A stretch of 64,000 nucleotides of DNA from Candidatus Micrarchaeota archaeon (GTDB taxonomy: Archaea > Micrarchaeota > Micrarchaeia > Anstonellales > Anstonellaceae). Both the position numbers and the translations under genes were made by a program. Location: positions 73,085 to 137,084 of the forward strand of contig JAOAKI010000001.1 of assembly GCA_026413765.1 (NCBI GenBank), written 5' to 3'. The notes beneath the pieces were generated by a model that saw only the letters and a program-made list of their open reading frames with translations, had not been told where the DNA came from and did not search any database. Below are positions 42,526 through 61,804 of this stretch, piece by piece. Positions within the stretch are counted from its first letter, which is position 1, and every line of letters begins with the position of its first letter.

Positions 42526-43676
42526 CCCTGGTCCGAAAACAAAAGCGCGCTTAAAGGCTTCTTTTCTTCTCCTCTGCTTCCTCCGCCTTCCAAATAGGCT
42601 ATCACAATCACCGCATTGAGCATCCAGGTGGCTATCAAATCCCCAACCAAGCCTGCAAGCGCGACAGCAGAAATCTCAAAATAAGTGTTGATATGTGTGA
42701 TTGATGCAAGAGCAAAAAGGCAAAGGAACGAAAGCATCAAAGCAGCACTCATGGTCGTGCCTGTTTTCATCGCCTCATATGCCCTCTCTCTTGGTGTGCC
42801 TTCGTGCCTCTTGATGACACGCATTGTCAGCAAAACGTCGGTGTCCAATGAGAAGCCAATCAGCATCAAAAGTGCGGCAAATGAAGCAAGAGTAAGCGGT
42901 ATGCCGAAAAAGCCCATTGCGCCCATCGCAATAAGCACGTCGCACAATGCTCCGATCAACACAGCTGCCGACGGAATGGCAGTCCTAAAGATGAGGAAGA
43001 CCACAATGCTTACAAAAATTGTAGAGTAAATCACTACATTTACTGCCTTTTCAAGAAATTTTGCAGAAAGCGATGCTGAAACTTCGTTAAATTGTGCGCT
43101 TTCGTATGCCACTAACTGCGACAGCGTTGCCGCCAATTTACTGGAATAGCTGTCTAAAATCATCCTGTACGCCGCACTAACAGCTTTCTTCAATTCGTTT
43201 GCATTCGCATAGCCAGAGGCATTTTTCTCCAGCCCCGCTATCTCAAAAAGCGCATCTGCTTTCTTGTCCAACTCTTTCCTTTCTTGCATGTATTTTTCCA
43301 ACGCTTCTGCGCTTTGGTTGGTTATGCCAACATCTGCTTCAAGCTGCGCCACCCTTTCAATTTTTTCAAAAAAAGCGGATTTCAGCTCTTCTGCTTGAGT
43401 CAATTTTTCGTCCCTTTCAACTTCAACTTCGACTTTGTATCCAGCCGGATTCTTAAGCGACTTTGCAGAAGAAATGGCATAGCCTTTCTGCTCCAGTGCC
43501 TCTTTGAGTTTTTCAATATCGACTCCTTCTTTTGTTTGCATCGTCACCAATGTTCCGCCTTTGAAATCGACTCCCTTTTTTATTTGCGGGATATAAAAAA
43601 GCGAAATCAGAACCAGCACTATCGGCACTAGCGCAAGCAGCTTGTAATTCCCCCTGTAAATGTTTGGCAATTGCAT
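42522..43676 (-). CDS. secF: Protein translocase subunit SecF
   Basis: GVDFKGGT, FLIFR, AALLMLIGFSLDTDVLLT, GLVGDL..TW.LN. Confidence 0.92.
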   Translation of the reverse strand: MQLPNIYRGNYKLLALVPIVLVLISLFYIPQIKKGVDFKGGTLVTMQTKEGVDIEKLKEALEQKGYAISSAKSLKNPAGYKVEVEVERDEKLTQAEELKSAFFEKIERVAQLEADVGITNQSAEALEKYMQERKELDKKADALFEIAGLEKNASGYANANELKKAVSAAYRMILDSYSSKLAATLSQLVAYESAQFNEVSASLSAKFLEKAVNVVIYSTIFVSIVVFLIFRTAIPSAAVLIGALCDVLIAMGAMGFFGIPLTLASFAALLMLIGFSLDTDVLLTMRVIKRHEGTPRERAYEAMKTGTTMSAALMLSFLCLFALASITHINTYFEISAVALAGLVGDLIATWMLNAVIVIAYLEGGGSRGEEKKPLSALLFSDQG

Positions 43677-43731: not shown

Positions 43732-44763
43732 TTAAATTATCTTAATCAACCCTCTGCCTATCTCTGCCAAATCTGCGCCAAGCAGAGAGCTTGTCTGCCT
43801 TATGAATGTGAAAGTGATTATAAGAGACACAAGCGGGTAAAACATTGCCTGAAGAAATATTATCCCCACCGAGGCAATAATATAGTCGATCTGATCCGAA
43901 ATCCACGTCACCAACCCTGCGCCTTCTGCGCTGCTTTGTGTGGCTTTGCTGTTCAATTTATAGTATATCTCAAATTGATTGCCAGCATCGGTAAAGCAGG
44001 GCTCCTCTGAGCTTAGTTGCTGGATTGTCTGGGATGCTTGTATGTTCTCAATCTCTCTGCACATGTCAGATGAGGAAGGCATTATTGAGATTATCATCAC
44101 ATAGCTTAGCGGAAAGACAAACGCAAATCCAAGCGCAAAAGCCGTTACGAATCCCCCAATTCCGCGTGTAAGTGGGAAAGAGCGAAGTACCAATCCGATT
44201 GGCAAGAATGGGTAAAGCATGGTGTAGTGGGCAAAATGCAAAAGGTAATATTGGATATAGTGAAATAAGATCAAATATATCATGTTATTTGCAATATAGT
44301 GAAATACTGCGACATATCCTGTCAGTGCGAATCCTCCTGATATTGGCTCGAGCCCACGGATATCATAAGTAAGAGTGCTCCACGGTTCAACCCACGCATT
44401 TAGTGTGTATGCAAGAGTATACACATTGATTTGGCATCTAATGACCACAAGAATATATGCTTTTCCTATCTCGCTTGGCGGAAGAAGCGTGTTTGGCGGG
44501 ACAGTTGAAGCCAGATGAAGGTTCCCTGAAGCTGCCGCAATACTTGTTGCAAGAGGCGCAAAAAGGTTAGTGTTCAGTAGCTGAATCGTGGCTGCAACCA
44601 TGATTATAAGGAAAGTAACAAACACTTGGACATACTCTCCTTTAACCCACATTCTCAGGTTCTGCAGATTAAAGGCGTTCGCAACCATGTGCAAAATAAT
44701 TGCTATGAAAAGGGAAATGAACCCAACAATCAAAGAAATTTCCACCCACATGTCCATCTTCAA
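43732..44763 (-). CDS. Multi-pass membrane protein, paralog 6 of 6 (CedA/VirB6-like)
   Basis: Shared motifs WVKGEYVQ, GLVLRSFPLTRGIGG..FPL and C-terminal FIRQTSSLLG. Confidence 0.6.
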   Translation of the reverse strand: MKMDMWVEISLIVGFISLFIAIILHMVANAFNLQNLRMWVKGEYVQVFVTFLIIMVAATIQLLNTNLFAPLATSIAAASGNLHLASTVPPNTLLPPSEIGKAYILVVIRCQINVYTLAYTLNAWVEPWSTLTYDIRGLEPISGGFALTGYVAVFHYIANNMIYLILFHYIQYYLLHFAHYTMLYPFLPIGLVLRSFPLTRGIGGFVTAFALGFAFVFPLSYVMIISIMPSSSDMCREIENIQASQTIQQLSSEEPCFTDAGNQFEIYYKLNSKATQSSAEGAGLVTWISDQIDYIIASVGIIFLQAMFYPLVSLIITFTFIRQTSSLLGADLAEIGRGLIKII

Positions 44764-45833
44764 ATCAGCCTCGTAAGGTTTGTCACATCTATTTCTTCTC
44801 CTAAGAAATGCGTAATGCCTCTTGTCAATTCTACCAACACTATGAAATTAATCACAGGCAGAGCCACTGCTGCAATCATATACACCAAAACTGGCTGCAG
44901 TAAAATAAATACCCCGCTGGTTGCATTCTCCACAAGTTTATTGCGAGTCTGTAAAGTTGCCGGATCTGAAGGGTCCAGCTCCTTTATATTCCGCTGAAAA
45001 TCGTTTGGAGTCGGAAGCTGGTAGTTGTTCGGATCGGCTTTGCTGTTCGCAGCGCCAACTTGCTGCGTTATTTCTTGCTCAGCTGCCTCAACTCTGTGCC
45101 ATACTATATAGTCATTAAATACTATCATTAACGGATAAAAGAAAAACAAAGCAATAGTAAGTCCGATCAATGTTCCGCCAAGCGGCCTTGTCGGCTCAAA
45201 TGCCCTAAGAAATATTCCGAAAGGATAAAGGAAAAACAGCCCAGCAATCGCCATGTATTCCACTATCCTCATTTGCAGCTGCAGCATAAGAAATGAGGTG
45301 ACATAGCCGCCAAGCATCAAAAACATCAAACCTGTTATTTGGCTAAATGTCTGCAATGGAGTGCTAGTTGAGCCAACCGCAAGTGGATTGGATGCCCAAG
45401 TGGAATTTGCTATTAAATTGACGATTTTTACCACAAAATTCATATAATAGAATATCAAATAACCCAACTCCTCAATCTGCTTGAAATACCTGTCAACTAT
45501 GGCCTCCATTTTCATTCCCTGCGGATATCTTGCAGAGTCAAGAAAACTCATGTCGAAATTGCAAAAGCCATAAATCCAGATTATGCTGAAGCCAATAATT
45601 ATCGTCGTTCCAAAAATCTGAAAAAGTTCGAATTTTGTCCATGCTTCAAGCATCTGGTTGCGCAACGCTTGGGAAACCATATACAAAAACACAAGAATAA
45701 ACAAAGATGCAAACAATGCTGCGAAAGTAAGCTCTAGCCATCCACTCCCAAGAATCCCAAACGAGACTGGTACAACGGGTGCGCTTCCACCCATGCCTAG
45801 TGCATTGCACACAGCTTCTCCAAATGTCATCAA
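44760..45833 (-). CDS. Multi-pass membrane protein, paralog 5 of 6 (CedA/VirB6-like)
   Basis: AWTKFELFQ, GIFLRAFEPTRPLGGTLI..YPL, FLGEEIDVTNLTRLI. Confidence 0.6.
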   Translation of the reverse strand: MMTFGEAVCNALGMGGSAPVVPVSFGILGSGWLELTFAALFASLFILVFLYMVSQALRNQMLEAWTKFELFQIFGTTIIIGFSIIWIYGFCNFDMSFLDSARYPQGMKMEAIVDRYFKQIEELGYLIFYYMNFVVKIVNLIANSTWASNPLAVGSTSTPLQTFSQITGLMFLMLGGYVTSFLMLQLQMRIVEYMAIAGLFFLYPFGIFLRAFEPTRPLGGTLIGLTIALFFFYPLMIVFNDYIVWHRVEAAEQEITQQVGAANSKADPNNYQLPTPNDFQRNIKELDPSDPATLQTRNKLVENATSGVFILLQPVLVYMIAAVALPVINFIVLVELTRGITHFLGEEIDVTNLTRLI

Positions 45834-47170
45834 ATCAACTTCTCAAGCGAGCTTAAGTCTATTTCTGTTCCAAGCACTTTGGCAATCTCTTTCGCAAAAG
45901 TGATCGTTATGAAGACATTGAATATCGGAAGCAGAATGCTTACTATAAATACAAAATATATCGTCTGATATAAAGCGTGCATTGCAAACGAAGTGGCAGG
46001 GATTATGAATACGACTGCCAACAGGTTGAGGTTGAGGAACTTGAGGATAAAGTATGTTGCAACAGTTATCCCGATTGTTTTTGCAACCGACCAAAACTCC
46101 CCAGTCGCAGGCCCTGTCAATGCATTGACAAATTGGGCATATACTTTTCCTAGCACAGTGTTGAATATGCAGCTTGCGCCAGTACTTATAGTGGGGTTTG
46201 AAAATATCCTGACAACCAGTGGCCCCTTGTTTATTTCCTCAACCAAAAGCCTCCCTTCTATTGTCGATGTATCGCCATTTGGAATGTATGGCCGAGGATC
46301 ATCCAAACTTGCAGGGTATGCGTTTCCAAGGCAGCAAATCGGCCGGTCTAAGCAGTTGATCCAAAGCCCGGAAGAGCTTGTTCCGCTGACAGTCTTGATT
46401 TCTCCCTCTATATAGCGGGAAATGATTTCACCACCTTGCACGATCAAAAACGGGTAGACAAAATAAAGAGAAAGCGAAACGCCTATCAGGGCGTTGCCTC
46501 CACCTTTTATCCCTAGCGCTCTAAGAAAGAGGCCAGCGTTGAGCAATATCGGCAAAGCACTATCTGCAATAAAGCAAAGCATATACTCATGGGCAAACCA
46601 GCTTATTATCGCAGTCGTAATCAATTGCATCAAGAGCCCCAAAGTGTCATATATCGGCTTGAATGCTGGCGCAACTTGGAAAGTGACATAGATTCCCAGT
46701 TGTTTTCCAAATAGCCTTGCATAGGGGGTTACGCTTGTGTGCAGAGAAAGCAAAGTTGTTGCCCCAAGCATCATTCCAAAATCAGCAATCATTGTGTTCC
46801 TGATTATCACCGCATATGCTCTTGCGGTTTCCAAGTTCGTCTGAGCAAATGGCTGGAAAATGGCAACAATTAAAACAAAGATCCCAACAAGAAGCGCGTT
46901 TTCGGCAAGCTCCCAAACTCCTGCCTTTGCAAAATCGCGTACTTTCTGCCCTAAAAGGCCACCCAAAATATGCGTCAAGCTATTTATTGACACGCCAAGC
47001 GCGATTGCTGCAACCGAAAGCGCCGCCCATCCAAGGTCTTGCGCTGGACGTCTATTGCACATTACTACTTTCAGGTCAGAATCTACAAACAGTGGATTTT
47101 GCCATATCCAGGCAAATCCTTTTTCCATCAAAAACAACAATATTAACGCAGCGATTATTTTTTTCATCAT
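45830..47170 (-). CDS. Multi-pass membrane protein, paralog 4 of 6 (CedA/VirB6-like)
   Basis: Signal peptide, DFAKAGVWE, GLFLRALG..GGNALI..YPF, VLGTEIDLSSLEKLI. Confidence 0.6.
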   Translation of the reverse strand: MMKKIIAALILLFLMEKGFAWIWQNPLFVDSDLKVVMCNRRPAQDLGWAALSVAAIALGVSINSLTHILGGLLGQKVRDFAKAGVWELAENALLVGIFVLIVAIFQPFAQTNLETARAYAVIIRNTMIADFGMMLGATTLLSLHTSVTPYARLFGKQLGIYVTFQVAPAFKPIYDTLGLLMQLITTAIISWFAHEYMLCFIADSALPILLNAGLFLRALGIKGGGNALIGVSLSLYFVYPFLIVQGGEIISRYIEGEIKTVSGTSSSGLWINCLDRPICCLGNAYPASLDDPRPYIPNGDTSTIEGRLLVEEINKGPLVVRIFSNPTISTGASCIFNTVLGKVYAQFVNALTGPATGEFWSVAKTIGITVATYFILKFLNLNLLAVVFIIPATSFAMHALYQTIYFVFIVSILLPIFNVFITITFAKEIAKVLGTEIDLSSLEKLI

Positions 47171-48459
47171 ATCAACCTTGACAGAACAGAAATTTCAACA
47201 TCTCCTCCTATTAGCGGAGAAAAATACTTCACACTTGCAAGCATCGTCATAAGACCCAAAAACGGAACCACAAGAGAAAATATTAGCAACGAAGCAAGCA
47301 TACCTATTGGCCCTTTTGGTCCAAATCCGCTTGATGGTGCCCCACTGCTAATATAGCCCAAAAAGTCTTTGTACCATGAAGTCCCTTCATACTTTTTCCA
47401 TATCGCAATGAATGCGCTTCCTAAATTCTCCATCTCATTAATCTGGCTTTGAGAGCGCGTATCATTGCACACATCTATCTGAAGCTTTTTTGCAGGATTA
47501 AACACCTCTTTTGCATCGCTTGATGAGCCGTAGTCCACGCTTCCGCCGCTGAAAGGCAAGGTCGCACCCTTGCTTTCGTCATATTTGAACCCAAAGACTC
47601 TTCCTCCGGTGTTCCAATTTGCGCCATCCATAAACCCAAAAAGTATTGCATTGGCAGCGACATAAAACATTGGCATTACTATATAAGCCGAAAGCGCAAG
47701 GGCAATAAGCAGGCCGCCAAGTTTTCTCGTGAAATACAATATCCTTAATATCAATCCCATCGAAATCATAACCGGAAATAGCGCGTACCATAAGTAATCC
47801 AAAAATATTTGCTGAGCCCTCGCCAACATCATCAATTTCACCGAAAGCTCAAAGACAATCGAGAAGAAATCAGCAGCCAGCGCCAAGAAGGCAAAAGGCG
47901 ACAAATTCAGGTTCCCTTGCCTTTCATCAAACAGTGATGTCCCGCTAAAAGAAAGATTTGACAAAAATCCATAAAGCCAATAATGCTTCAGGGCAGTTAT
48001 TGCATTCATTCTTGCTGTCTCGTATAAAGTTTGGAGATAGTCGGTTGCAAGCTCGATATGGCATGCTCTTCTTTTTGCAAACGGGCAGTTGGCGCCAGTG
48101 CAGCAAACAGTGTTTACATAAGTGTTCCACTGACCCGTCCTGTCATCGCTTAAGTAACTGAGGCTCATAAGCCAAGAGTCTAAAACCTCCACAAGCGCGA
48201 CAGCAAAGATAAGTATCAGCACAGAAAGGAAAGCCTGCCCCACTTCCTTCTTTGTCCAGGCTTTCAGCTTCTCGTCGTTTGTCAGAGTAGCCACCATATA
48301 AGATATCGACAGCAGAAACACAACTGCCAAAAGCGCCACTCCAGCAAGCATTTCCCAACCCCATACCCACACGCTTCTTGAGGACGAGGTGCTAGTTGCT
48401 CCGCTGCAGCCAAATGCAAGAAAAAGCACGGTTAACAAAATCGCACTAGCCGTTTTCAT
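47167..48459 (-). CDS. Multi-pass membrane protein with lipobox, paralog 3 of 6 (CedA/VirB6-like)
   Basis: LAFGC lipobox, AWTKKEVGQ, GLILRILYFTRKLGGLLIA..MPM, LIGGDVEISVLSRLI. Confidence 0.6.
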   Translation of the reverse strand: MKTASAILLTVLFLAFGCSGATSTSSSRSVWVWGWEMLAGVALLAVVFLLSISYMVATLTNDEKLKAWTKKEVGQAFLSVLILIFAVALVEVLDSWLMSLSYLSDDRTGQWNTYVNTVCCTGANCPFAKRRACHIELATDYLQTLYETARMNAITALKHYWLYGFLSNLSFSGTSLFDERQGNLNLSPFAFLALAADFFSIVFELSVKLMMLARAQQIFLDYLWYALFPVMISMGLILRILYFTRKLGGLLIALALSAYIVMPMFYVAANAILFGFMDGANWNTGGRVFGFKYDESKGATLPFSGGSVDYGSSSDAKEVFNPAKKLQIDVCNDTRSQSQINEMENLGSAFIAIWKKYEGTSWYKDFLGYISSGAPSSGFGPKGPIGMLASLLIFSLVVPFLGLMTMLASVKYFSPLIGGDVEISVLSRLI

Positions 48460-48461
48460 AC

Positions 48462-49379
48462 TTACCCCAGCTTTTGTCCAATGAACTTTGTAAAGCTTCT
48501 AATGAATGCTATTGTGAGTGTCATTGATAGCGCAGGCAAAAACAGAGCCTGCAATAGAAGGTAAGATAAAGTAAGCAGCGGGTCAAACAGGATGCTTTCT
48601 AGGCTGAAAAATTTCGAGTAGCTAACTTCTGCCATAAAGTTCGGATATTGTTGTGCGAGTCTTTCTTCGAACTGTTGACTGCTGGCTTGCTTGAATGTTT
48701 TTTCCATCATTTTTGGCACGATATAAGCATGCATTGCATAACTGTACGGAAAAAGTATTCCAAATCCAATAGCAACTGATATCAGAAATGCGCTTGCATC
48801 TCGCAATGGCGGGAATATCCTTGTCAATACCGCAGCAGGCAGCAGAAACGGAATCAATACTGCCTGAATCGCCTCCAAAATTAGCTGCTGAACCATCAAG
48901 CTTGCAGTAAACGGGACAATTATTATCGATAAAAAGTCAAATATTCTCTCAAACAATACAGCAGAAGGGAATGTTAGATTTATTGTCCCCCACGCTGCTG
49001 GCCCCCATCTCATTGACCAAGCCGCATGGTACTGAAAACGCAATACTGCTGCTTTCATCGATGCAGCAGTTATCAACATTTTCTGGTTGATAAATGTCAG
49101 GTACTCTTTGCCTATTTCGTATGGATCTCTTCCGGTCAATAATTCGGTCATTTCAGCTGCAAAACACGTTGCGCCAAATATGCTGATAAACAGGAAAGCA
49201 GAAACCGCAAGCTGATAAAGTTCAATCGAGCTGAATGCCTCATACTCAGGTCTTCTAAAAAAGTTTGCAGCCATGTAAGATATTATCACTACACTTATCA
49301 TTGTAGCAAGCGCCATGCCCGCGGTAGAATAAATCACATTGTATAAAAACGCATCATTTGCGCATAATGCCATCTTCAC
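48462..49379 (-). CDS. Multi-pass membrane protein, paralog 2 of 6 (CedA/VirB6-like)
   Basis: AFSSIELYQ, LTRIFPPLRDASAFLI..FPY, FIRSFTKFIG. Confidence 0.58.
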   Translation of the reverse strand: MKMALCANDAFLYNVIYSTAGMALATMISVVIISYMAANFFRRPEYEAFSSIELYQLAVSAFLFISIFGATCFAAEMTELLTGRDPYEIGKEYLTFINQKMLITAASMKAAVLRFQYHAAWSMRWGPAAWGTINLTFPSAVLFERIFDFLSIIIVPFTASLMVQQLILEAIQAVLIPFLLPAAVLTRIFPPLRDASAFLISVAIGFGILFPYSYAMHAYIVPKMMEKTFKQASSQQFEERLAQQYPNFMAEVSYSKFFSLESILFDPLLTLSYLLLQALFLPALSMTLTIAFIRSFTKFIGQKLG

Positions 49380-50773
49380 ACCAGCTTGCTTATTCCAAAT
49401 ACCCTTGGTTCGCCTCCTATCAAAATCGCAAAATCTTTCAGGAGCGTCATTGTAATGATAATCTCGATTACTAAAAACAACATCGACATAATTGTAAATT
49501 GCATTGCATCCATAATTAATATCTCTATCTCCTTGAACATTGCCACAGATGCTGCAGGTGGCAGCGGAAATGCAAAAAGCAAGATATTCCTTCCTATACT
49601 CTGCATCCTCCTTGCAAGCTCATTTTTTGCATCTTCCATCATTTTCTCGGTTTTTGTCCATTTCTCATTGCTGGCGCTTCCACCGCCATAGACCTCCAAG
49701 AATACTCTATCATGGGTTTGGGCAGCCTGTTTTAGCGCTTCGTTGATTTCATCAGCACTCTTTCCATAGCACAAAGAGAAAATAGAAGAGTATTCTCTAA
49801 AGTCAGTCAGTGGCGTAGTGCAAACTTTGCTGCCTCCTTGCTCATACCTGCAATTTCTTGAACAGCACTCATCATCACTTGTGCAAGGCTGGCCATTTGT
49901 AAGACAGGCTGGGCCCCCAGGCTGCGGCATCGGATTAGCAATCATTTCCCATATTTGTTGATTTATGAGTATGCTGATCGGGTAAATGAAATATCCTGCA
50001 AACGCCACCGCAAGTATTGTAGAGCCTGTTTTTCTTGTAAATGGGAATGCTCGCAAAATAAGCCCGATCGGCATAAACACAGTAAGAGCGTTCTCCTCAA
50101 TAAAGGTAAGCAATATTTTTTGTGCCATTATGCTGCCTAGTGCTGCGCCAACAACATCAACAAGCAGGGTGTGAATGTCGGATATTGGCACCATCGCAAT
50201 CCAAGGGGCAATACCAAAAGACACATCAATAAAGGGATAAATGATAGGCATTCTCAATCCGGTAGAAAGGCCAGAAAGAAGACCAATTACAACCTCAGTC
50301 ATCATTAGTGACATATAGCCAAATGTCAATTTTCGCATTATGACGCCATCAGCCCCAATAATCATGAATGGAGGGGTAGAGGAGGTTATGATGCCTGGTC
50401 TGCAGCCAAGAAAATAATCAGCATGGCCATATGCGATGTTTCCGTTTCTCCATCTTCCATTCTCAAATGGCCCATGCTTTATCTTCCACTCTTCGCAAAC
50501 TTGAGTTGGCGGAACTCCGCTTAGCATGAAGCCTTCGGCAACCTTGTCAAATACGCTTCCAGGAGTGGCCAAGACATAAACTATCAGCAATATGATTGCG
50601 CTTACAGCAAGCTCGCCAGTCTCTGCTTTTGCGAACGCCTTTATTGATGAATTAGACAATGCCTCCCCAACAATAAAAGATAAAGACACAATTGCCACGC
50701 CAATAGCAAACGCAATCCCTATCATCTGCCAAGGCCAGCCAGCAACTACTACTTGAAGCAAATATTCTATCAT
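49376..50773 (-). CDS. Multi-pass membrane protein with Cys-knot loop, paralog 1 of 6 (CedA/VirB6-like)
   Basis: AFAKAETGE, GLILRAFPFTRKTGSTIL..YPI, LIGGEPRVFGISKLV; loop CLTNGQPCTSDDECCSRNC...C. Confidence 0.6.
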   Translation of the reverse strand: MIEYLLQVVVAGWPWQMIGIAFAIGVAIVSLSFIVGEALSNSSIKAFAKAETGELAVSAIILLIVYVLATPGSVFDKVAEGFMLSGVPPTQVCEEWKIKHGPFENGRWRNGNIAYGHADYFLGCRPGIITSSTPPFMIIGADGVIMRKLTFGYMSLMMTEVVIGLLSGLSTGLRMPIIYPFIDVSFGIAPWIAMVPISDIHTLLVDVVGAALGSIMAQKILLTFIEENALTVFMPIGLILRAFPFTRKTGSTILAVAFAGYFIYPISILINQQIWEMIANPMPQPGGPACLTNGQPCTSDDECCSRNCRYEQGGSKVCTTPLTDFREYSSIFSLCYGKSADEINEALKQAAQTHDRVFLEVYGGGSASNEKWTKTEKMMEDAKNELARRMQSIGRNILLFAFPLPPAASVAMFKEIEILIMDAMQFTIMSMLFLVIEIIITMTLLKDFAILIGGEPRVFGISKLV

Positions 50774-50853
50774 TTTGCCTTCACCGTTTAAAGGCGCCCT
50801 ATTTGTATTTTTATAGCATAATTTTATATATACATTAAACCCAAAATTAAATC
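50774..50853. promoter_or_regulatory. 80-bp divergent promoter shared by the membrane-protein operon and the giant-protein operon
   Basis: AT-rich gap with TTTTATA and TTTATATATA boxes between head-to-head starts. Confidence 0.55.
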
Positions 50854-53800
50854 ATGGCGACAAAGAGCACTCATGCATTTCTAATTATAATTTTTATATT
50901 GTCTGCCTTTGTTCAATGCTCTTTTTCGTTCGAAGTCGTCAGCGAAGGCAAAGACAAGACTTTCATTGAGCTTTCAGTTGAAAATAAAACAGTCATCGCA
51001 AAGATTTCTTACTACAATCTCAGCTATTACAGCAAGCAAATGCCGCAAAACTACCCGAATATAGACCAACGACTTGGGACACTGCCACCCGAATTCTTCC
51101 AGCCCCCCTCTCGCCCTTATTCAGAAGAGTTTTTCAGGGTCAAGAGGGAAAACCTTTCTAATGCTTCCATTTATTTTGTTGTGCTCTACAATGGTCAGCA
51201 ACTGAATATAACAGACGAAAATGGCAACGAAAAATGCTCCCCTGCTCCAAAAACAGACGAAGCAGGGAAGACAAACTGCACTGTCACTCACTTCCTTTTT
51301 GGTGGTCAGGTTAAGGAGGTTGATTCTGAAAAAAGCTGCATACTAGTAAAAGCGTCATTCCTTGGCGAGCAGATAGACAAGAAAACCTATAAGCCAAGCT
51401 CTCAGACAGTAATTCTCTGCCCAAAGCCATCTGCCTCTGCTCTTTCACGATTTGGCAGCAGCTTGGCTCTAATACTTTCATCAAACAATCTCTTCATCAA
51501 CAGCTTATGCTTCCCATTAGCCTTGCTTTTATCTTTACTGATTGCTGCAATGTATTATGCTGGAAGAAACCCGCTTTCTCTTTTCGACTTGACTACTCCA
51601 AAACTCCCGCACTTGCGCTCATTCAAGATGAAGTCAAAGGCTTCTCCTCAGATGATGAGGTCAGTAGCAAGAAAATATGCCCAACTACAAGTGAGGGCAG
51701 CAAAAAGCGCATCTAAAGCCTTAGCCGAAGTCATAAGAGTGAGAGGAAAATATGAAGGCAAAAGAAAAGAAGAGATACTGCTTGAAGTCTTAAAAGCAAA
51801 AGCCAAAGTTCACCACCTCTTTCATGACTTGAAGCATTCAATAGAGGCTTCAAAGGGCAAAGGCCTTACGGATGCCCAAATTCGCAACTTTGAGAGGCGA
51901 CTTGCCGCTCTTTTTGGCACAGCTCCAGAAGGAAGAAGGGCATTCAAAATCTGGAAAAAAAATGTGGAGATGACACTGCCATTCATCCAGCTTTACAACG
52001 CTGCATACCAGACCTATTCGATGACTGCAAGCGGTCGTGGGCTTTCAAATTCACTGGTATCAAGGGCAATTGTTACACCACTTTTCAATAAGTTGACAAA
52101 GGTCAGCGTTTACTTGGAGGAATTGAAAGGAATAAGGGCAATAGGTAAAATCCCAATAGTCAAGAACGTAATCAACACGCCAACGCGTATATTTGATGCA
52201 ATTGCCCAGCACCGCTCCTCTCGTTTGGGCGCGCTTAATTTGAGGAGGGAATTAATAGGTGGCGCGGTTTACACCATCCTCAATAGGCTCAACATGGTGG
52301 ACAAAGCAAAAAACTTCATGCAAAAGTCAGGAATAGAAGCGTTCTTCAAATGGACACATAAGTGGAGTTTTGACAGCTTTGTTGCCAAGCACGATTTGTA
52401 TAACCGAAAATTCAGGGAACTTTACGACCCTGTGGAAAATGTCCGAAAGCTCTCAATTGACGCATACAATATTGCATACCACGACCTTCTAAGAAAGCTC
52501 ACCTTTTCGCTTCCGACTAAAATGACGATGGGCGAGATTCTTGTTTCCATGCAAAATTCTATAAAAGACAAAAAAAGAAACGATCAACTCAAAGATGATT
52601 TTAGAAAATTGATCGATGCTTTGGAGAACAATCGGAATATCAACCTTGATACTGTTTTGAAGATCGCGCGTGAGCTTAAACTTTCAGAAAAAGACGTCTC
52701 TTTTATAAGGAGAGTAGTTGAGCTGCAAGATCAGTGGGGCAAGATCCAGCAGGCGCTTGAGGCGATAATGAATAAGCCATACGAAAGCCACTATTACAGA
52801 TTGAAAGCACTCTATGATTTAGCAGTCAAGTACGGTATTGATTTAAAATTGGGTGAGGATCTCAATAAATGGAAGGACTACGAGGAAAATGTGATTAGGA
52901 AAATAATGCTTGCCCGGATGGAAAACGGCACCTATAAGCCAATCACATGGGCTGATGTCCGAAATGAGTTTAGAAGTGGCGCATCGACTCGTGACATTCA
53001 AACCAAATTCGGTGGTATTGTCTCAAAAGCAGAATACGAAAGGAGGATGCTTGAGCTGCGCAACAGGGTTCTCTCCTCCACAGATGCAAAAACCTTAAAG
53101 GACAATACAATCGGCACAATCCTCACTATCAGAGACAGCATCAATGCCAAAATAAATTCCACAGGTCCAACCACCCTTTTTTCCCATATCTATGCAGATG
53201 CGCTAGGCTCAAATCCCACGGCATTCTACTTGAACAGGCGCCTTGCTGAGTTAGGGCTTGGTGACATCAAAGTCAAGAACTTGGACGAATTTGAGATCTT
53301 TTTCTTCCGAGGGACGATGTCAGAGTCATTGCGCAGGCGCCTTGAGAGGATCGCTGCGGATAATAAGCGAACGGTGGATGACCTGCTTAAGGATATCATG
53401 GTTGAGGCCTTAAGGTTCCAAGTCTCTGCAAATATTGCAAATATCAGGATTGCTGAGCTGATTTTTGGAGACACAGCTTCCCGCAAGAGCGTCTTTTCGG
53501 ACATCTTCGGTAGCCGAGCAGAGAAACAGATGAAAGGGATGATTAAACTTCACGAGCAACTCGAATATTCATTTCAGAGGATATCGTTCAATTATTCACC
53601 TTATGATTTGCAGAAAGAGGCACTGTTCAACCAATTGAGGGTTTCTGAGCGGTCGGCAGGTTTCTTCATCTGGGGCACCAAACGCGGCGGCAGCAATGCA
53701 GACAGCGTGATGTGGCTTTTGGATTCGACCTTCAAGCACAATGCTGATGCAGTCGGCATGTTGAGAGCCTTCTACAACAATCTCATCAACCGCGAAAGCA

Positions 53801-56457
53801 GATTCTATGACGAAAAATTTGCGCAAAAGATAAAAGAAGGCGATTTTGTTTCAAACTATGATGCACTTCGCGCAAGGGGATATAACTTTTTGGATGTCCG
53901 GAACGGCCTTGGCATCCTGCTGAGAGGCGACAAGAAAGGTAATCTGCCTTTGTTGGAATATGACCCGACCATACTTTCTCAATATCGTTACAATTCCGAA
54001 ATCGTAAAGAAAGGCGAAGTGCGAGACCTTGGGGCACTGTTTGCAAGGATAGCAGACTCTCCTTACGTTTATTTGCCTTCAGGTGTGGTGGTGCTTTCAA
54101 AATTCACAGATTCATCTGGCAGGATCAGCTGGTTATACGGTGCGCCTCTGAAATCCAAAGAAGTGGAAAGAGTGTACAGAGAGGCGCTGCAAGACCCCAC
54201 TTTCAGCCGAACTTCTGAACTATCCAACAAGCTTGTAGGTTTTGATAAAGACGGCAACTACCGTCCGTCTACCCAACTTATCAAAGTGATCTACGCAAAA
54301 GACTTGCAGGAGATCAAAAACAATCCAGACAATTTCTTTGGATATGTTTCACCCTTTGAAAAATTCAGGAGCAGGATACGTACTGGGCTTCACAAACTTG
54401 GGGAGCTGTTTGGCGAGATGTATTATTCTGCGACCGACTACCGTGCATCACAGCTTGAAAAATGGTATGCTGCCCAATATCAGATGCGCATGATTCTTGA
54501 TTCTTATGAGCGCTCTTTTGCCCGTTACATGACGCCTGGCACCAAAAGATATGATCCGTCATCTTATATTGAGGATTTGAAATCAGAGGGCCTCAAAACA
54601 AATGACCAGCTGCGCATTCGCGTAGCAAACACAATGGAGAAATTGAAAAGAGGGGAAGGGGGCTGGCTTGACACATTGCGCGCCACTTTTGATGGCTTTA
54701 GAAGAAATCTTGCTGCCAAAATAGTCAACGAAGTTGCCGAGGCGGAATCTGCCTGGTATGCCGCAAAGCTTGAGCTGAGGGCAATCGAGAAGCTGAAAAA
54801 TGAAGGGGCAATTACAAAAGATGAATATAAGACTCTAAGAGAAGAAGCACTCTCTAAGATCAGCGGCCTTAAAGAGTCGTACAAAGAGCTAAAAGAAGAG
54901 TACAAGCAATACAACGAACTGGCGCGCTATTGGGCAAGCAGCCACGACAACACTTACGGAACCGCAAGAAACATTTTCAAGGTTCTGCCCGTCTTTACCT
55001 CAATTTTTGACAGCAAATTTGTTCAAGGTGCAAAAATAGATTATTATTTCATTACCGAATCAAGCGCAATGAGGGATCCGCGCACAGCGACAGGCGCAGG
55101 CGTTGGACTTGACTATTCGTTTTATGTCGGTTACCAAACCGGTCAGACGGTCTATGAAAGGCCAAGATTCTGGACGACAAACGCATTGTGGGAAGAGCAG
55201 CTTCGCCTTCCACTTATGTTGTCTTATGCTGTCCACAAATGGTTCTATCCTGCAGTAAGCCAGGCGACACGCGACAGAAGCCACTATCCTTCCTATCTTG
55301 AGATGGATGCTTTGTATCCAGGCAGGCCGCATAATGAAAGCCGACTCGGAAAGCATGATCTGTTCATGCCGATGGTCTTGGCTCCTCTAAGAAGGCATTA
55401 CAGCTCAGATTATTGGAGAACGCGCTTCCAAGCTCTGCTTGATTTTTCAGGCGCATCCTCACTAATAGGGGCGTATTTTTCAACCTCTCCTTCTCAGACC
55501 GAGGCTTCTTTCTTTAGAAGAACAATGGAAAAAATGTTCTTGCCAAGTCCGCACTATTCAACTGAAGCGCGATTCTTGCTTTCTCAGAGGACATTAGACC
55601 AGTTCAAGATGCTTGATGAAGCAAGAGAAAAATATTCAGAAGTAAAAGAGGCAATCGATACATACATCAACTCAATTGATGGCTCTGAAGCACAAAGGAA
55701 AGCTTTAGAAACCATATCTAAATATGTAGAGATTTCGGACCGAAGGCCAATTGGCGTCCAGCGTGGAGTTTCAGGTTCGGATATGGAGGAAGATGGCTCG
55801 CGGAATCGTTTCATGAACCTTTATGTTGGCTTCCACCAAAACATCTGGAAGCCAACCGTTCCAGGGTTGATGGATACTGATCCGATCAGCGGCAAATGGA
55901 GGGCATTCCCGCAGACCGCTATGGAAGTCTACCGGGCTCCAGAAGAAAGCAAGCTTGACAATCTAAGGCAATTCAACCTGCCAACTTATGATGAAAAGAC
56001 TGGCCGGTTTGTCTTGACTGAGCAGCTTCACAATTATGATGACGCAATGCGGGAGGTATACAAGCGCGAAAGTACTCTTTTGATTCATTTGCTGAAGTAC
56101 CAGCACGAGCTGCAAAGCTATACAATCCTCAACAGCCCAGCTGTTCTTGTCGCATCGCCTGGCATTGGTTCAGCTCTTGCATTCAACATTAGCAGATTTT
56201 TCCTAAGCAAGACTCGGCTCGGCTCTTCGATTACTGAAGAGGAAGCTTCATTCTCCGAGCGATTTTTCACCCAGAGTTGGTACAGTTCTATTGCAAAAAG
56301 ATGGGCATTAGCTAAAAACTCTTGGAATGAATTATTAGAAAGCACGTTAATCTCTCGTTTATCTGGCGCTTCAAGGAAAAGCAGGCTAGAGGAAGATGCC
56401 TTAAAACTTGCTATTTACAGCTATAGCAATCTGTCTTCGAGAGGGTATCTATTATGA
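50854..56457 (+). CDS. Giant (1867 aa) single-pass membrane protein of unknown function
   Basis: Signal peptide, ~170-aa Cys-containing beta-rich exodomain, TM helix CFPLALLLSLLIAAMYY, then ~1600 aa of charged, mostly helical sequence with no recognised motif. Confidence 0.8.
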   Translation: MATKSTHAFLIIIFILSAFVQCSFSFEVVSEGKDKTFIELSVENKTVIAKISYYNLSYYSKQMPQNYPNIDQRLGTLPPEFFQPPSRPYSEEFFRVKRENLSNASIYFVVLYNGQQLNITDENGNEKCSPAPKTDEAGKTNCTVTHFLFGGQVKEVDSEKSCILVKASFLGEQIDKKTYKPSSQTVILCPKPSASALSRFGSSLALILSSNNLFINSLCFPLALLLSLLIAAMYYAGRNPLSLFDLTTPKLPHLRSFKMKSKASPQMMRSVARKYAQLQVRAAKSASKALAEVIRVRGKYEGKRKEEILLEVLKAKAKVHHLFHDLKHSIEASKGKGLTDAQIRNFERRLAALFGTAPEGRRAFKIWKKNVEMTLPFIQLYNAAYQTYSMTASGRGLSNSLVSRAIVTPLFNKLTKVSVYLEELKGIRAIGKIPIVKNVINTPTRIFDAIAQHRSSRLGALNLRRELIGGAVYTILNRLNMVDKAKNFMQKSGIEAFFKWTHKWSFDSFVAKHDLYNRKFRELYDPVENVRKLSIDAYNIAYHDLLRKLTFSLPTKMTMGEILVSMQNSIKDKKRNDQLKDDFRKLIDALENNRNINLDTVLKIARELKLSEKDVSFIRRVVELQDQWGKIQQALEAIMNKPYESHYYRLKALYDLAVKYGIDLKLGEDLNKWKDYEENVIRKIMLARMENGTYKPITWADVRNEFRSGASTRDIQTKFGGIVSKAEYERRMLELRNRVLSSTDAKTLKDNTIGTILTIRDSINAKINSTGPTTLFSHIYADALGSNPTAFYLNRRLAELGLGDIKVKNLDEFEIFFFRGTMSESLRRRLERIAADNKRTVDDLLKDIMVEALRFQVSANIANIRIAELIFGDTASRKSVFSDIFGSRAEKQMKGMIKLHEQLEYSFQRISFNYSPYDLQKEALFNQLRVSERSAGFFIWGTKRGGSNADSVMWLLDSTFKHNADAVGMLRAFYNNLINRESRFYDEKFAQKIKEGDFVSNYDALRARGYNFLDVRNGLGILLRGDKKGNLPLLEYDPTILSQYRYNSEIVKKGEVRDLGALFARIADSPYVYLPSGVVVLSKFTDSSGRISWLYGAPLKSKEVERVYREALQDPTFSRTSELSNKLVGFDKDGNYRPSTQLIKVIYAKDLQEIKNNPDNFFGYVSPFEKFRSRIRTGLHKLGELFGEMYYSATDYRASQLEKWYAAQYQMRMILDSYERSFARYMTPGTKRYDPSSYIEDLKSEGLKTNDQLRIRVANTMEKLKRGEGGWLDTLRATFDGFRRNLAAKIVNEVAEAESAWYAAKLELRAIEKLKNEGAITKDEYKTLREEALSKISGLKESYKELKEEYKQYNELARYWASSHDNTYGTARNIFKVLPVFTSIFDSKFVQGAKIDYYFITESSAMRDPRTATGAGVGLDYSFYVGYQTGQTVYERPRFWTTNALWEEQLRLPLMLSYAVHKWFYPAVSQATRDRSHYPSYLEMDALYPGRPHNESRLGKHDLFMPMVLAPLRRHYSSDYWRTRFQALLDFSGASSLIGAYFSTSPSQTEASFFRRTMEKMFLPSPHYSTEARFLLSQRTLDQFKMLDEAREKYSEVKEAIDTYINSIDGSEAQRKALETISKYVEISDRRPIGVQRGVSGSDMEEDGSRNRFMNLYVGFHQNIWKPTVPGLMDTDPISGKWRAFPQTAMEVYRAPEESKLDNLRQFNLPTYDEKTGRFVLTEQLHNYDDAMREVYKRESTLLIHLLKYQHELQSYTILNSPAVLVASPGIGSALAFNISRFFLSKTRLGSSITEEEASFSERFFTQSWYSSIAKRWALAKNSWNELLESTLISRLSGASRKSRLEEDALKLAIYSYSNLSSRGYLL

Positions 56458-58661
56458 GGCTACTGCTTGCGATTGCTGTGCTTTTTTTCTTTTTTGGCTG
56501 CACTCTCAACGTTCCTGCTTCCGAAAAATTTGCAGCCTCCACTCTTGCAGTCGGCAGGTTTTCGCCTGCAGATGAGATGGTCTGTCAGCCACTCAATGAC
56601 TCAAGGCCTTGCTACTGCATGGTCTGCGAAAACAAGACAACTTGGTCATCCATCTTCCCTGAAAAGATGCGCAAGCTTATGGCTTTTTTCGATTCGACTT
56701 TGCACAAGGGTAATTGCACCTTTATGCACTGCAATATGACTGATTTTGTCAACATCATAAGCGAAAAAGAGCGCTATCAGATGCGCTCATTCATGCTCGG
56801 AATCGGTCCCTCCGCAAGCGCGGTTGATAACGCAAATCTTTTCTGCAATTATTCTCTCCAGCTTTCTTTCAAATGGCTGAAAGGCTCTGTGTTTAATAGC
56901 CCAGAGATCCCAAGCCCGCGATCAGCAAAATGCTGGCTCGAGCGAAATATCCTCCCAGTCTACCTATATTACACCGAAGGCAAAAACATCGACGTATGGA
57001 GGACTGCCCAGATTGCGCAAGCATTCAATGATGTTGGGCCGGTGCTTCTTTCCACCGAAGTCTGGTTCGATCCAAATGATCCTCAAGCAATCGAAGGCAT
57101 CAAAGGACAAATTGACGCAATAAAAGCAAATTGCAACAGCTGTCTCGTCGTTCTCATGCTGAACGGATCAATCCAAGATCGAAAGCTTGTCTTAGAGAAA
57201 ATATTCGGTAGAGGGGACATAAAGACTGGAGCAGGATTCAGCCCATATTACCAGAAAGTAGATGTTGTCGGATTTGGTTTTCTTGCAAACGATTATCCAA
57301 CCTGCAATCCAGTTGACGTCATTGGGGAGAACTTTCTTTTTTCAAGATTTGTTTTGAAAAAATACTCGAAGCCGACTCTTTGGGCGTATGTAGGAGTAAG
57401 TAAAGGAAATAATAGTTTTGGCACATGCAGCTGGGATGAAGAGGCAGTGCATAACTTTTATCAGCAGCTTTTTGCAAGCATCCAAGCAATGTCAAGCTCA
57501 GGGATTATTGGCGTCGGCTTCTATGAGTTTTCAGACTATGCAGGCCCACTTCCTTGCGACAACAAAATTCAGGGATGCGAGTTTGGCCTTTTGGATTCTT
57601 TTGGAAACCAAAAGCACCCAGCAATCAACACATGGTCTTCCCTTTGCCAGTATTTTGGCACTGTGCAGTTCAGAAGCCCGCTTATCTTTTCAAGAAATGG
57701 CTACGGCTCGGTTTGCGACCCTATGCAACTGCAGAATAACAAGATGTTTACAGCGATTTCTTTTGAACTAAATAGCGGAAAGCCTCTGCCAAATTCTATT
57801 GTTCCTACAGCCCCAAAAGAAAAATATCTTCGCTGTAGCGACATTTGTGTTTCCGACGTGCCGCTGAATGATTGGCAGATTTTCGACAACACTGGAGACA
57901 CATTCGATTCTGCCCATTGCGATCTCTACCCATTCATAGAGGAATTAGCAGAAGAAAAAGAAATCAGCGCCTTGTTTTTCAGAGCAATAGTTGAGCAGGA
58001 AAGCAACTTCAACCCATACGCAGTTTCTTGCATAGACCAAAATTCGCCAAATTGCAATCCTGCAAACCTTTCTATTGCAGAGATTTGCCGGCTGGCAAAC
58101 CTTTCTGATGACTGCGGCCAAGTGGTAGGCGGAGGCAGCTCCTGTCCGGCAGGCATGAAGCCGTGTGCATTTGGCATTGCGCAATGCATTGCTTACCCCG
58201 GCAAATATTATGTCCAGCGCGGGATTGACCTTCCGCTTGAAATCCGAAATTGCGGAAAAAGCAAGAAAGGCATAGATTACAATCCATTTGATCCGCAGGA
58301 TAGTGTTTGCTGCGGAACTTCTGTTTTGAAATATTATCTGGACATTTCACCATCAGCAGGCAGAAACTTTGTCCAAAACAACTGGAACACGCTTACTTCC
58401 TGCCCGCAAGGCATCAAAGATGACAAGGAGTGGGTAGCTTATTTCTTGGCTGCTAACACCTATTATGGCTATCCTAATGATTTTTCAGGCTTCCTATCTC
58501 AGCTTAACAATTGTCAAGGCCAACAAAATTACATTTCCTATCTGAGAAGCAAGGGATACTCCTATGCAGCACGTGTACTTTCCCGCTACCTTGACGCTAT
58601 AGACAAGTGCGGCTCGGATTGCCCTGGAAAAGCCGTACAGATAGCCTCCAATCCTCCTTAA
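56454..58661 (+). CDS. Cys-rich lipoprotein with glycoside-hydrolase-like barrel and C-terminal lytic transglycosylase (SLT)-like domain
   Basis: FFFGC lipobox. KPTLW...GIIGVGFYEF...FGLLDSFGNQKHPA is a clan GH-A-like end. RAIVEQESNFNPYAVS, AFGIAQ and NPFDP..SVCCGT..L are SLT motifs. Confidence 0.7.
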   Translation: MRLLLAIAVLFFFFGCTLNVPASEKFAASTLAVGRFSPADEMVCQPLNDSRPCYCMVCENKTTWSSIFPEKMRKLMAFFDSTLHKGNCTFMHCNMTDFVNIISEKERYQMRSFMLGIGPSASAVDNANLFCNYSLQLSFKWLKGSVFNSPEIPSPRSAKCWLERNILPVYLYYTEGKNIDVWRTAQIAQAFNDVGPVLLSTEVWFDPNDPQAIEGIKGQIDAIKANCNSCLVVLMLNGSIQDRKLVLEKIFGRGDIKTGAGFSPYYQKVDVVGFGFLANDYPTCNPVDVIGENFLFSRFVLKKYSKPTLWAYVGVSKGNNSFGTCSWDEEAVHNFYQQLFASIQAMSSSGIIGVGFYEFSDYAGPLPCDNKIQGCEFGLLDSFGNQKHPAINTWSSLCQYFGTVQFRSPLIFSRNGYGSVCDPMQLQNNKMFTAISFELNSGKPLPNSIVPTAPKEKYLRCSDICVSDVPLNDWQIFDNTGDTFDSAHCDLYPFIEELAEEKEISALFFRAIVEQESNFNPYAVSCIDQNSPNCNPANLSIAEICRLANLSDDCGQVVGGGSSCPAGMKPCAFGIAQCIAYPGKYYVQRGIDLPLEIRNCGKSKKGIDYNPFDPQDSVCCGTSVLKYYLDISPSAGRNFVQNNWNTLTSCPQGIKDDKEWVAYFLAANTYYGYPNDFSGFLSQLNNCQGQQNYISYLRSKGYSYAARVLSRYLDAIDKCGSDCPGKAVQIASNPP

Positions 58662-60837: not shown

Positions 60838-61764
60838 TCATTGCCCTGGTGGCAACACAAACTGCTGCTGACGATAGACTATCGCATCGCCAGCTGCTGT
60901 TCGCTCGCCTAACATTAGTATTATCCTGTTTGAAGCGCCGTCCGCCCTGTATCTTCCAATTATGATTGCCTCTCCTTTTGCGGCTTTCTCCACAAGCTTT
61001 TCTATCCCAGGCGCAAGCTCGCAGAATGCAAATGCGGCGGCGTCAGTCAGAGGTAAACGCAGGTTGGTACCATCTGCAGTTATTGTCAAATTCTTGAAAT
61101 CAAGAACTACTTTTCCACCCTTCGTCTGCAACATCGTCTCCATGATTTTCTGGTGCATATATGCTATTTGCTTTGAAAGCCTCTTTTTTGCGATTTGCCG
61201 CACTATCTTGCCGATGTTGGATTTGAGGCTATAAAGCCGATTCCTTGCCTTCCTTACTTTTACCAGTGCCTTGGTTTTTTTATGAGAACTCAACGCCTTT
61301 TTCAAGTCTTTGTGTATTTCTCTGCATTTTTTTGCGTCTTGCCTAAATTTTGCAATAAGCAGGGCAACCTCCAATGCTTCGCCCTCAGCGCTCTCAGCTT
61401 CTGCTTTTTTGAGGTGCATTCGCATTTTTTCGAGCATCTGCTTGCTTTGCTCAAATTTTTCTGACCATTCTTCTGCTTTTTCAGAAAGCGCAGCATGCAA
61501 AGCAAGGTTTTGCGCCTCTAAAATCTCTTCTTCTGCTCTTTCCGCAAGTACTATTGATTCATTTAGCTGCAAGTCGCTTTCTGATGCTTGTAGCTTTTCA
61601 ATAAGCGCGATCATCTCCTCAATCTTCTCTATCTTTGAGTGGAATTTTGGAGCTTTTGCCACTGCCTGCACAAATTCGTCAATTACCTCGCCGGACTCTG
61701 CCTCCAGCTTTTCTAATTCTTGGTAGCACTGCTGTATCTGGCCGCCAACAACTGCCTTTGGCAT
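60838..61764 (-). CDS. Hypothetical coiled-coil protein
   Basis: About 308-aa E/K-rich helical ORF with a small C-terminal beta domain. Confidence 0.7.
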   Translation of the reverse strand: MPKAVVGGQIQQCYQELEKLEAESGEVIDEFVQAVAKAPKFHSKIEKIEEMIALIEKLQASESDLQLNESIVLAERAEEEILEAQNLALHAALSEKAEEWSEKFEQSKQMLEKMRMHLKKAEAESAEGEALEVALLIAKFRQDAKKCREIHKDLKKALSSHKKTKALVKVRKARNRLYSLKSNIGKIVRQIAKKRLSKQIAYMHQKIMETMLQTKGGKVVLDFKNLTITADGTNLRLPLTDAAAFAFCELAPGIEKLVEKAAKGEAIIIGRYRADGASNRIILMLGERTAAGDAIVYRQQQFVLPPGQ

Positions 61765-61804
61765 AAAATCCTTTTGTAGCAACTGAAATTTATTAACTTT
61801 CCTT

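Follow-up and report, generated by a model that had tools for sequence, protein, structure and literature searches.

What kind of machine is built by six paralogous membrane proteins whose genes stand head to head with those of a giant protein and a surface lipoprotein? These eight genes fill positions 43732-58661 of a 64,000-nucleotide stretch of Candidatus Micrarchaeota archaeon DNA (C1:73085-137084 of genome G000), which is called the window throughout. Most likely, the window carries the membrane core of a chromosomal, domesticated apparatus resembling type IV secretion systems (T4SS) and the archaeal Ced system, together with two lineage-specific accessory proteins, and we consider it probable that the machine encoded by the window and its partners elsewhere in the genome is related to T4SS/Ced. 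An earlier note on this DNA, written from its letters, had proposed such a T4SS/Ced-related reading, which is now supported mainly by gene context. The note had also assigned the DNA to a DPANN cell, in agreement with its source, an 840-kb Micrarchaeota (DPANN) genome (840,152 bases, 17 contigs, rated 100% complete) of an archaeon that is probably host-dependent.

Two head-to-head operons

The paralogs, named p1 to p6, lie on the minus strand at 43732-50773, and p6 is transcribed first. All eight open reading frames (ORFs) were found where the note had placed them, in two operons that face each other across 80 bp:

43732..44763 (-): p1, 343 aa, last gene of the array, tail ...GADLAEIGRGLIKII (ORF)
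44760..45833 (-): p2, 357 aa, the modelled paralog, five long membrane helices (ORF, AlphaFold2)
45830..47170 (-): p3, 446 aa, N-terminal signal peptide (ORF)
47167..48459 (-): p4, 430 aa, N-terminal lipobox LAFGCSG (ORF; orthogroup of 56 proteins)
48462..49379 (-): p5, 305 aa, ends ...FIGQKLG (ORF)
49376..50773 (-): p6, 465 aa, first gene of the array, VirB6-like polytopic protein, Cys-rich knot in an outer loop (ORF, paralogy)
50774..50853 (no strand): divergent intergenic region, presumed site of two promoters
50854..56457 (+): giant protein, 1867 aa, overlaps the lipoprotein ORF by 4 bp
56454..58661 (+): surface lipoprotein, 735 aa, 34 Cys, lipobox FFGC

In the ORF map, four of the junctions among p1-p6 are 4-bp overlaps and one is a 2-bp gap. 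The spacer between p6 and the giant gene is AT-rich and contains TATA-like runs in both directions, as judged by eye without an archaeal promoter model. The divergent layout of the array and the giant/lipoprotein pair is retained in 18/27 related loci, down to 22-30% identity. The paralogy that had been claimed for the six membrane proteins is borne out by 19-24% identity, a common loop motif (PxGLxLRAFPxTRxxGG) and a C-terminal tail (LGxExDxxxLxKLI); p5 is the only paralog without the LGxExD..L.KLI tail.

Gene order in a sister family points to the probable missing parts

The window had been described as lacking a VirB4/HerA-type ATPase, which would have to be encoded elsewhere, and both statements agree with the genome. 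Its matches to PF03135 (0 in the whole genome), PF01935 and PF12846 all fall outside C1:73085-137084, and an ATPase operon was found on contig C5 and pilin-like genes on contigs C13, C7 and C10:

C5:37542-44112 (L054:4543-11113): ATPase operon, fused to the array in family f11
C5:38414-40015: A533, VirB4/CedB-like ATPase, in the ATPase operon
C10:16365-17822: A485, a paralog of A533
C13:9688-10708, C7:61502-62138 and C10:76365-76694 (L056, L057 and L058): six pilin-like genes

The C5 operon, flanked by two GT4 glycosyltransferase genes, encodes a 289-aa membrane protein (C5_289), A533, a 98-aa protein resembling the C terminus of A533, a 141-aa zinc-ribbon protein with two transmembrane (TM) helices, an 861-aa protein with two TM helices (C5_861) and a coiled-coil protein of 253 aa whose end is winged-helix-like (C5_253). 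Neither C5_289 nor C5_861 has a Pfam or NCBIfam family.

The decisive evidence that these are the missing parts is the gene order in the sister family f11. At all five f11 loci, the array is followed directly and on the same strand by C5_289-like genes, an A533 ortholog (59-63% identity) and, after two small ORFs, a C5_253-like gene. A second C5_289-like gene is present at four of the five loci, a single one being recognised in L050, and a C5_861-like gene likewise occurs at 4/5. Six paralogs were resolved in three of the f11 arrays and four in the other two. Just upstream of the array, the three loci with six resolved paralogs carry one or two small genes (116-139 aa) encoding a signal peptide followed by two hydrophobic helices. 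A comparison of synteny in relatives, which had been suggested earlier, therefore places the array and a VirB4/CedB-like ATPase in one f11 operon, with VirB2-like pilin genes in 3/5.

All nine small proteins match T4SS_pilin (PF18895) at E<1, and four of them match TrbC/VirB2 (PF04956), the best at 5e-5, over nearly the full profile length. Of the pilin-like genes in the window's own genome, two are cut by contig ends and one has a Cys-rich C-terminal extension. Since the tandem pilin copies run into the contig ends, repeats probably broke the assembly there, and the ends of C13 and C7 may join.

The ATPases and their distribution

Four FtsK/HerA-type ATPases are encoded in the genome, one of them a canonical HerA. 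The best NCBIfam matches of A533 are CedD (4.5e-22), CedB (5.9e-22) and VirB4-like families, with HerA behind at 1e-13, whereas against solved structures HerA (4d2i, 1.4e-10) precedes VirB4 (4ag5, 1.8e-5). A485 matches VirB4-like CD1110 (5.9e-28) and CedB (3.1e-25). As the VirB4/CedB families score best, ahead of HerA, yet under their cut-offs, A533 and A485 appear from their sequences to be kin of these families rather than members. A BLASTP comparison of the ATPases, pilins, giant and lipoprotein with VirB1-VirB6 and TraG of pTiC58 returned nothing significant.

Among 151 sampled genomes of the phylum (a sample that includes the unpublished G028, on which no claim rests), a profile search matched the paralog family in 135, usually in many copies per genome. 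A533 is present in 137 genomes from the same phylum families as the paralog family. It accompanies the array in 135/135 array-bearing genomes (134 at E<=1e-100); in the 16 genomes without the array, an A533 match is absent from 14 and only weak in the other two. The paralog profile had no match in f12, f16, f18-f20 and most of f13, where genus g85 alone has the paralog family or A533.

A further ATPase, the TrwB/VirD4-like A779 (779 aa, no TM helix), is encoded at C1:63140-65479 (L015:694-3033), 7.6 kb before the window. It occurs in 28/151 genomes with 31-68% identity, above 40% in all but three of them, and had no sequence match in the PDB. We considered A779 as the motor of the array and rejected it, because it is patchy and does not track the array. 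Given its presence in only 28 genomes, we regard it as an accessory gene rather than an array partner, and it is probably carried by a mobile element.

Six ancient paralogs in a fixed order

None of p1-p6 matches any family in a Pfam/NCBIfam scan. A profile built from the six paralogs recovered 2938 cluster representatives at E<=1e-3, 2006 of these at E<=1e-10, and the close homologs of p2 (89 proteins at E<=1e-3) all come from Micrarchaeota or Anstonellaceae metagenome-assembled genomes. The database proteins fall into separate orthogroups for p1-p6, typically with 35-53% identity to their own window paralog. In the 27 loci fetched around p6, the order p6 to p1 was found with all six recognised in 15, and another order was seen in none; the other 12 are cut by contig ends or had a gene missed by the crude ORF/BLAST pass. 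In that same pass, p6 (an orthogroup of 29 proteins) is the first gene of the array in all 25 loci where it was recognised.

Conservation is concentrated at the C terminus. Over their last 14 residues, five of the paralogs show 75-91% identity, compared with 39-45% for the whole protein, and every tail is paralog-specific. The extreme is p1, with 91% versus 45% among 17 orthologs, while p5 reaches 56% versus 43%. In the outer loop of p6 (aa 288-311), four nearly invariant Cys belong to a small knot. Sub-threshold Pfam matches of p6 to spider and cone-snail toxins (E about 2e-3) were set aside as reflecting only the disulfide pattern of this knot.

Two observations on the wider family may be added. 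A lone thirteenth family member (339 aa, C10:58359-59378, L011:8360-9379) lacks the tail motif and lies beside an aspartate carbamoyltransferase gene. Arrays of the Micrarchaeota type, with 42-48% identity to p6, also occur in L024 and L033, whose records are labelled Woesearchaeota and Patescibacteria; these contigs are probably mis-binned.

Fold and topology of the paralogs

The AlphaFold2 model of p2, built with 56 homologs, has five long helices (pLDDT 81.7, pTM 0.75). An exhaustive VIA-align comparison with 48,161 chains ranked R388 TrwI/VirB6 (7o3v_F) first, with Z 9.6 and a root mean square deviation of 6.1 over 234/261 aligned residues. This was the sole chain at Z>=8, and Legionella DotA came second at Z 7.9. 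In a second structural look, three TrwI entries ranked 1, 2 and 4 of 754 chains, 8rt9_F reaching Z 8.5 with 251/272 residues aligned. R388 TrwI (7o3v, 8rt9, 8rtd) is thus the best structural match of p2 over nearly its whole length. We rate the match as moderate, since helical folds often reach such Z-scores by chance. Foldseek returned no PDB structure for the p2 model at E<=1e-3, and the p2-ortholog profile gave nothing usable against PDB sequences. The p2-ortholog alignment compared with the single pTiC58 VirB6 sequence had a probability of 0.2%. In the ESM Atlas, p2 and p4 (scores 0.90 and 0.86) share a neighbouring Micrarchaeota cluster; Pfam CedA1 (PF27251) is assigned to 23% of its members, which serves as a lead only.

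Several paralogs have signal peptides, p4 has a lipobox, and the copies encoded on contig C14 (described below) contain N-terminal or loop domains rich in Cys, of which one copy has 86. From these features and the five helices of the p2 model, we infer a topology with the N terminus outside, five membrane helices, the conserved loop between helices 3 and 4 inside, a variable Cys-rich loop outside and the tail inside. This is the topology reported for VirB6, which has its N terminus outside, 4-5 TM helices and its C terminus inside, with conservation centred on the TM3-TM4 loop (PMC7648143). Of the VirB6 likeness suggested earlier, the moderate fold match of p2 to TrwI stands, whereas the sequence and profile comparisons were null. 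The link of the paralogs to VirB6 appears to be supported by this modelled fold and by gene context, not by sequence.

The giant protein and the lipoprotein

The giant was correctly described as a 1867-aa single-pass protein overlapping a lipoprotein: it has one TM helix (213-235), preceded by a signal peptide and an ectodomain of ~190 aa with 4 Cys, and its 4-bp overlap leads into an ORF with a lipobox and an SLT match. Residues 220-1867 contain no Cys, and the helix is followed by a K/R-rich stretch; on these grounds, ~1630 residues of the giant are predicted to lie in the cytoplasm. The proposal that all eight proteins are targeted to the envelope accordingly would not apply to most of the giant. 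Its conserved blocks are aa 201-280 (the TM region), 1401-1480 and 1641-1680. The giant has no Pfam or NCBIfam family, and a PDB profile search with its C-terminal part gave no sequence match. Nine related proteins were recovered, none detected outside Micrarchaeota.

The SLT motif noted in the lipoprotein is confirmed by a PF01464 match at aa 495-662 that passes the Pfam cut-off (24.5 versus 21.3 bits) and by conserved catalytic positions. Hallmarks of SLT domains are a catalytic Glu-Ser pair and GLMQ-like and AYNxG-like motifs. In 18 lipoprotein orthologs, 10 of which have an SLT match at E<=0.01, E516 is conserved in 94% and S517 in at least 90%, and G574..Q577 (AFGIAQ) and Y670 (in AANTYYG) are invariant. 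The AlphaFold2 model (pLDDT 80.2, pTM 0.82) adds an N-terminal (beta/alpha)8 TIM barrel at about aa 130-415, for which Foldseek returned 271 PDB matches at E<=1e-3, headed by glycoside hydrolase (GH) family 2 beta-glucuronidases (1e-6), GH53 galactanase and PslG. The lipoprotein ortholog profile yielded nothing usable against PDB sequences. Clan GH-A enzymes carry a catalytic Glu pair after strands 4 and 7. In the lipoprotein barrel, the invariant acidic residues are E202 and D270; by the model-based strand numbering, E358 after strand 7 is <80% conserved and there is no Glu after strand 4.

The giant/lipoprotein pair was recognised beside the array in the 18/27 loci with the divergent layout, and the lipoprotein in 54/151 genomes, comprising the window's order and families f14, f15 and f17. 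A paralogous module on C14 links paralogs, lipoprotein and giant a second time:

C14:14504-33688 (L010:105-19289): second eight-gene module, on one strand, co-directional

Its six paralogs have 421, 307, 1143, 733, 442 and 367 aa, three of them with 21-86 Cys, and are followed at touching coordinates by a lipoprotein (1366 aa, 66 Cys) and a giant of 1612 aa, whose TM region matches that of the window's giant at E 9e-11. The C14 proteins have no Pfam or NCBIfam family, and the six paralogs among them have no PF04610 match at E<=0.01.

Genomic setting

Downstream of the array lies a pair of translocase genes:

40822..43676 (-): secF 42522-43676 and secD 40822-42525, Pfam SecD_SecF_C

They are on the same strand as p1 and 55 bp downstream of it. 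The adjacency is kept in 12/27 loci and lost in the five most distant loci with sequence after p1. We therefore dropped secDF as a working part of the system and treat it as a conserved neighbour. The genes around the eight are archaeal housekeeping genes (fibrillarin, L15e, Rpp14, RtcB, AdoMet decarboxylase), and the G+C of the cluster, 0.42-0.46, is near that of the rest of the window. At distant loci, the neighbours of the array include aminoacyl-tRNA synthetase, M17 peptidase, geranylgeranyl reductase, carbamoyl-phosphate synthase and glycogen synthase genes. Between the L15e and RtcB genes, a 314-aa ORF (window 60838-61782, minus strand) has no Pfam family.

Weighing the alternatives

Several observations weigh against a T4SS/Ced-like apparatus. 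Every pilin match is below its cut-off (best 23.9 versus 27.9 bits), as are the ATPase matches under the curated cut-offs (CedB 78 bits versus 700, CedD 78 versus 600, VirB4_CagE 38.9 versus 643). By Pfam, run on 10 unassigned neighbours, no ATPase or pilin gene adjoins the array here or in the 27 loci. PF04610 (TrbL/VirB6) has no match at E<=1 in p1-p6, and hhalign of the family profile (a 158-sequence alignment) against an Agrobacterium-type VirB6 profile (26 sequences) gave a probability of 0.3%, equal to that of the SecF control, in a test that is weak because the VirB6 profile is narrow (Neff about 3). The conserved loop PxGLxLRAFPxTRxxGG has no Trp, a residue reported to be invariant in VirB6 (PMC7648143), and the Z of 9.6 for p2 is below the level of about 13 that VIA-align itself sets for convincing helical bundles. 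The co-occurrence of the array and A533 amounts to few independent events, since the genomes counted are related. The lipoprotein was not found in f9, f10 and f11 (0/77 genomes), and the giant and lipoprotein profiles found nothing in the five f11 genomes, an empty result that carries little weight; as they were not found in these families, neither protein is treated as a core part. A rival reading is a novel envelope machine, driven by an ATPase but no homologue of T4SS, with the VirB6 likeness reflecting a common helical arrangement and the pilin and ATPase likeness reflecting convergence or very deep superfamily kinship. The missing sequence-level VirB6 signal, the empty Foldseek search, the middling fold Z-scores, the sub-cut-off ATPase and pilin matches and the additional match of A533 to HerA structures would all suit such a machine. 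We nevertheless regard it as unlikely, because pilin, polytopic channel protein and VirB4/CedB-like ATPase agree with one another and share one operon in relatives, the top two fold matches among the 48,161 chains both belong to inner-membrane channel proteins of T4SS, and the topology that we infer is the one described for VirB6 (PMC7648143).

It is also conceivable that the window joins two unrelated units, the array belonging to a T4SS-like system and the giant and lipoprotein forming an independent surface glycan-remodelling pair that merely shares the spacer. The narrower distribution of the lipoprotein (54/151 genomes, versus 135/151 for the array) and the occurrence of arrays without it in L046, L047 and the f11 operons point in this direction; a divergent pairing kept in 18/27 loci at such low identity and the second, independent linkage of the same three gene kinds in the C14 module make the idea distinctly unlikely. 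It is very improbable that these genes, instead of forming a cellular system, make up the transfer region of a plasmid or an integrated conjugative element. T4SS-like parts are typical of such elements, and the TrwB/VirD4-like ATPase A779 lies 7.6 kb before the window; however, the array is present in 135/151 genomes and syntenic with secDF, the AdoMet decarboxylase gene and ribosomal genes, its G+C is close to that of its surroundings, A779 is patchy and does not follow the array, and the Pfam-annotated neighbours include no relaxase or integrase, although no dedicated relaxase search was run.

A proposed mechanism

In the T4SS/Ced-related apparatus that we favour, the six VirB6/CedA-like paralogs would most likely come together, one copy of each, in a single hetero-oligomeric channel or platform, and the nearly invariant C-terminal tail of each paralog may serve as a docking peptide for cytoplasmic partners. 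The VirB4/CedB-like ATPase encoded at C5:38414-40015, with its operon partners, would be the motor, and the VirB2-like pilins from C13, C7 and C10 would provide the subunits of a filament or conduit. On the cell surface, the lipoprotein would cut or grip glycan, either of its own envelope or of a partner cell, in a VirB1-like role. The giant would be anchored beside the channel as a large scaffold reaching into the cytoplasm. Such an apparatus might act in host contact, in envelope breaching or in the transfer of DNA, protein or nutrients between cells.

The R388 stalk contains five VirB6 copies. In a bolder version of this model, which we think improbable, the six paralogs would close into a ring in which every VirB6-like subunit is different, a stoichiometry not known from T4SS. 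The giant and the CedB-like motor would be positioned by the six distinct cytoplasmic tails and, together with the glycan-cutting lipoprotein and the pilins, the ring would form a symbiont-side portal that exchanges DNA, nucleotides or proteins with hosts. Cryo-tomography has shown a barrel-shaped 'docking platform' of 21 nm, as yet unidentified, in the Microcaldus variisymbioticus ARM-1 envelope (PMC11329633), and the portal might, for instance, correspond to it.

Comparison with known systems

The DNA import systems Ced (Sulfolobales) and Ted (Thermoproteales) are reported to comprise a VirB6-like CedA/TedA, a VirB2-like pilin (CedA1/TedC) and a VirB4-like ATPase (CedB/TedB) (PMC9905601). 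Like them, the system described here would be an archaeal, chromosomal and apparently relaxase-free T4SS derivative with a pilin, a polytopic channel protein and a VirB4-like ATPase; its ATPases score best against the CedD and CedB models, and its pilins have a signal peptide, as TedC does (PMC9905601). As far as the cited account of Ced and Ted extends, it differs in having not a single channel protein but six ancient paralogs whose order is fixed, in parts spread over at least four loci of the window's genome, and in the addition of a giant, predicted cytoplasmic protein and a TIM-barrel/SLT lipoprotein (PMC9905601). Its scores also fall far under the equivalog cut-offs, and its host is a DPANN archaeon.

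Rickettsiales, with reduced host-dependent genomes, are described as carrying 4-5 tandem VirB6 paralogs, some with lipoboxes and huge hydrophilic extensions (PMC7648143). The array resembles these in its tandem paralogs, one with a lipobox, and departs from them, as portrayed in that source, in having six paralogs, Cys-rich outer-loop extensions and paralog-specific, near-invariant C-terminal tails; compared with bacterial VirB6 in general, the paralogs lack a PF04610 match and a Trp in the conserved loop (PMC7648143).

Patescibacteria have a chromosomal, MPF-FATA-like T4SS that was reported to be essential for epibiotic growth in one strain (PMC12102498). Both systems are relaxase-poor and chromosomal, belong to ultrasmall host-dependent lineages, and combine VirB6 or VirB6-like, VirB4 or VirB4-like, VirB2-like and VirB1-like parts with a coupling protein that is not tied to the system; the patescibacterial one is bacterial, its parts are of another lineage, and, in the account available, it has a single VirB6 and neither a giant nor a TIM-barrel/SLT partner (PMC12102498).

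The lipoprotein recalls fam00969, a family of large SLT-domain surface proteins of Woesearchaeota and Pacearchaeota, in being a DPANN surface protein with a murein-type lytic transglycosylase domain (PMC8204110). Unlike fam00969 as characterised there, it is a 735-aa Micrarchaeota lipoprotein that carries a GH-like TIM barrel as well, and its gene is linked to a VirB6-like array (PMC8204110). A literature search for such a system in Micrarchaeota found no published description.

Significance

How DPANN archaea attach to hosts and take up material is an open question, and in the cryo-tomography of cultivated DPANN, the proteins of the contact structures are stated to be unknown in the published passages (PMC11329633, PMC11420986). 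The system supplies named candidate genes: chromosomal, T4SS/Ced-like and present in most families of the phylum, they encode a sixfold-diversified channel protein, a motor and pilins, which in the window's order are joined by a predicted two-domain glycanase lipoprotein and its 1867-aa cytoplasmic partner. The known range of archaeal T4SS derivatives is thereby extended beyond Ced and Ted, and the parallel with the T4SS of Patescibacteria suggests that ultrasmall symbionts of both domains have convergently adopted machines derived from conjugation. For such cells, this system may be the way in which they connect to, or take material from, other cells.

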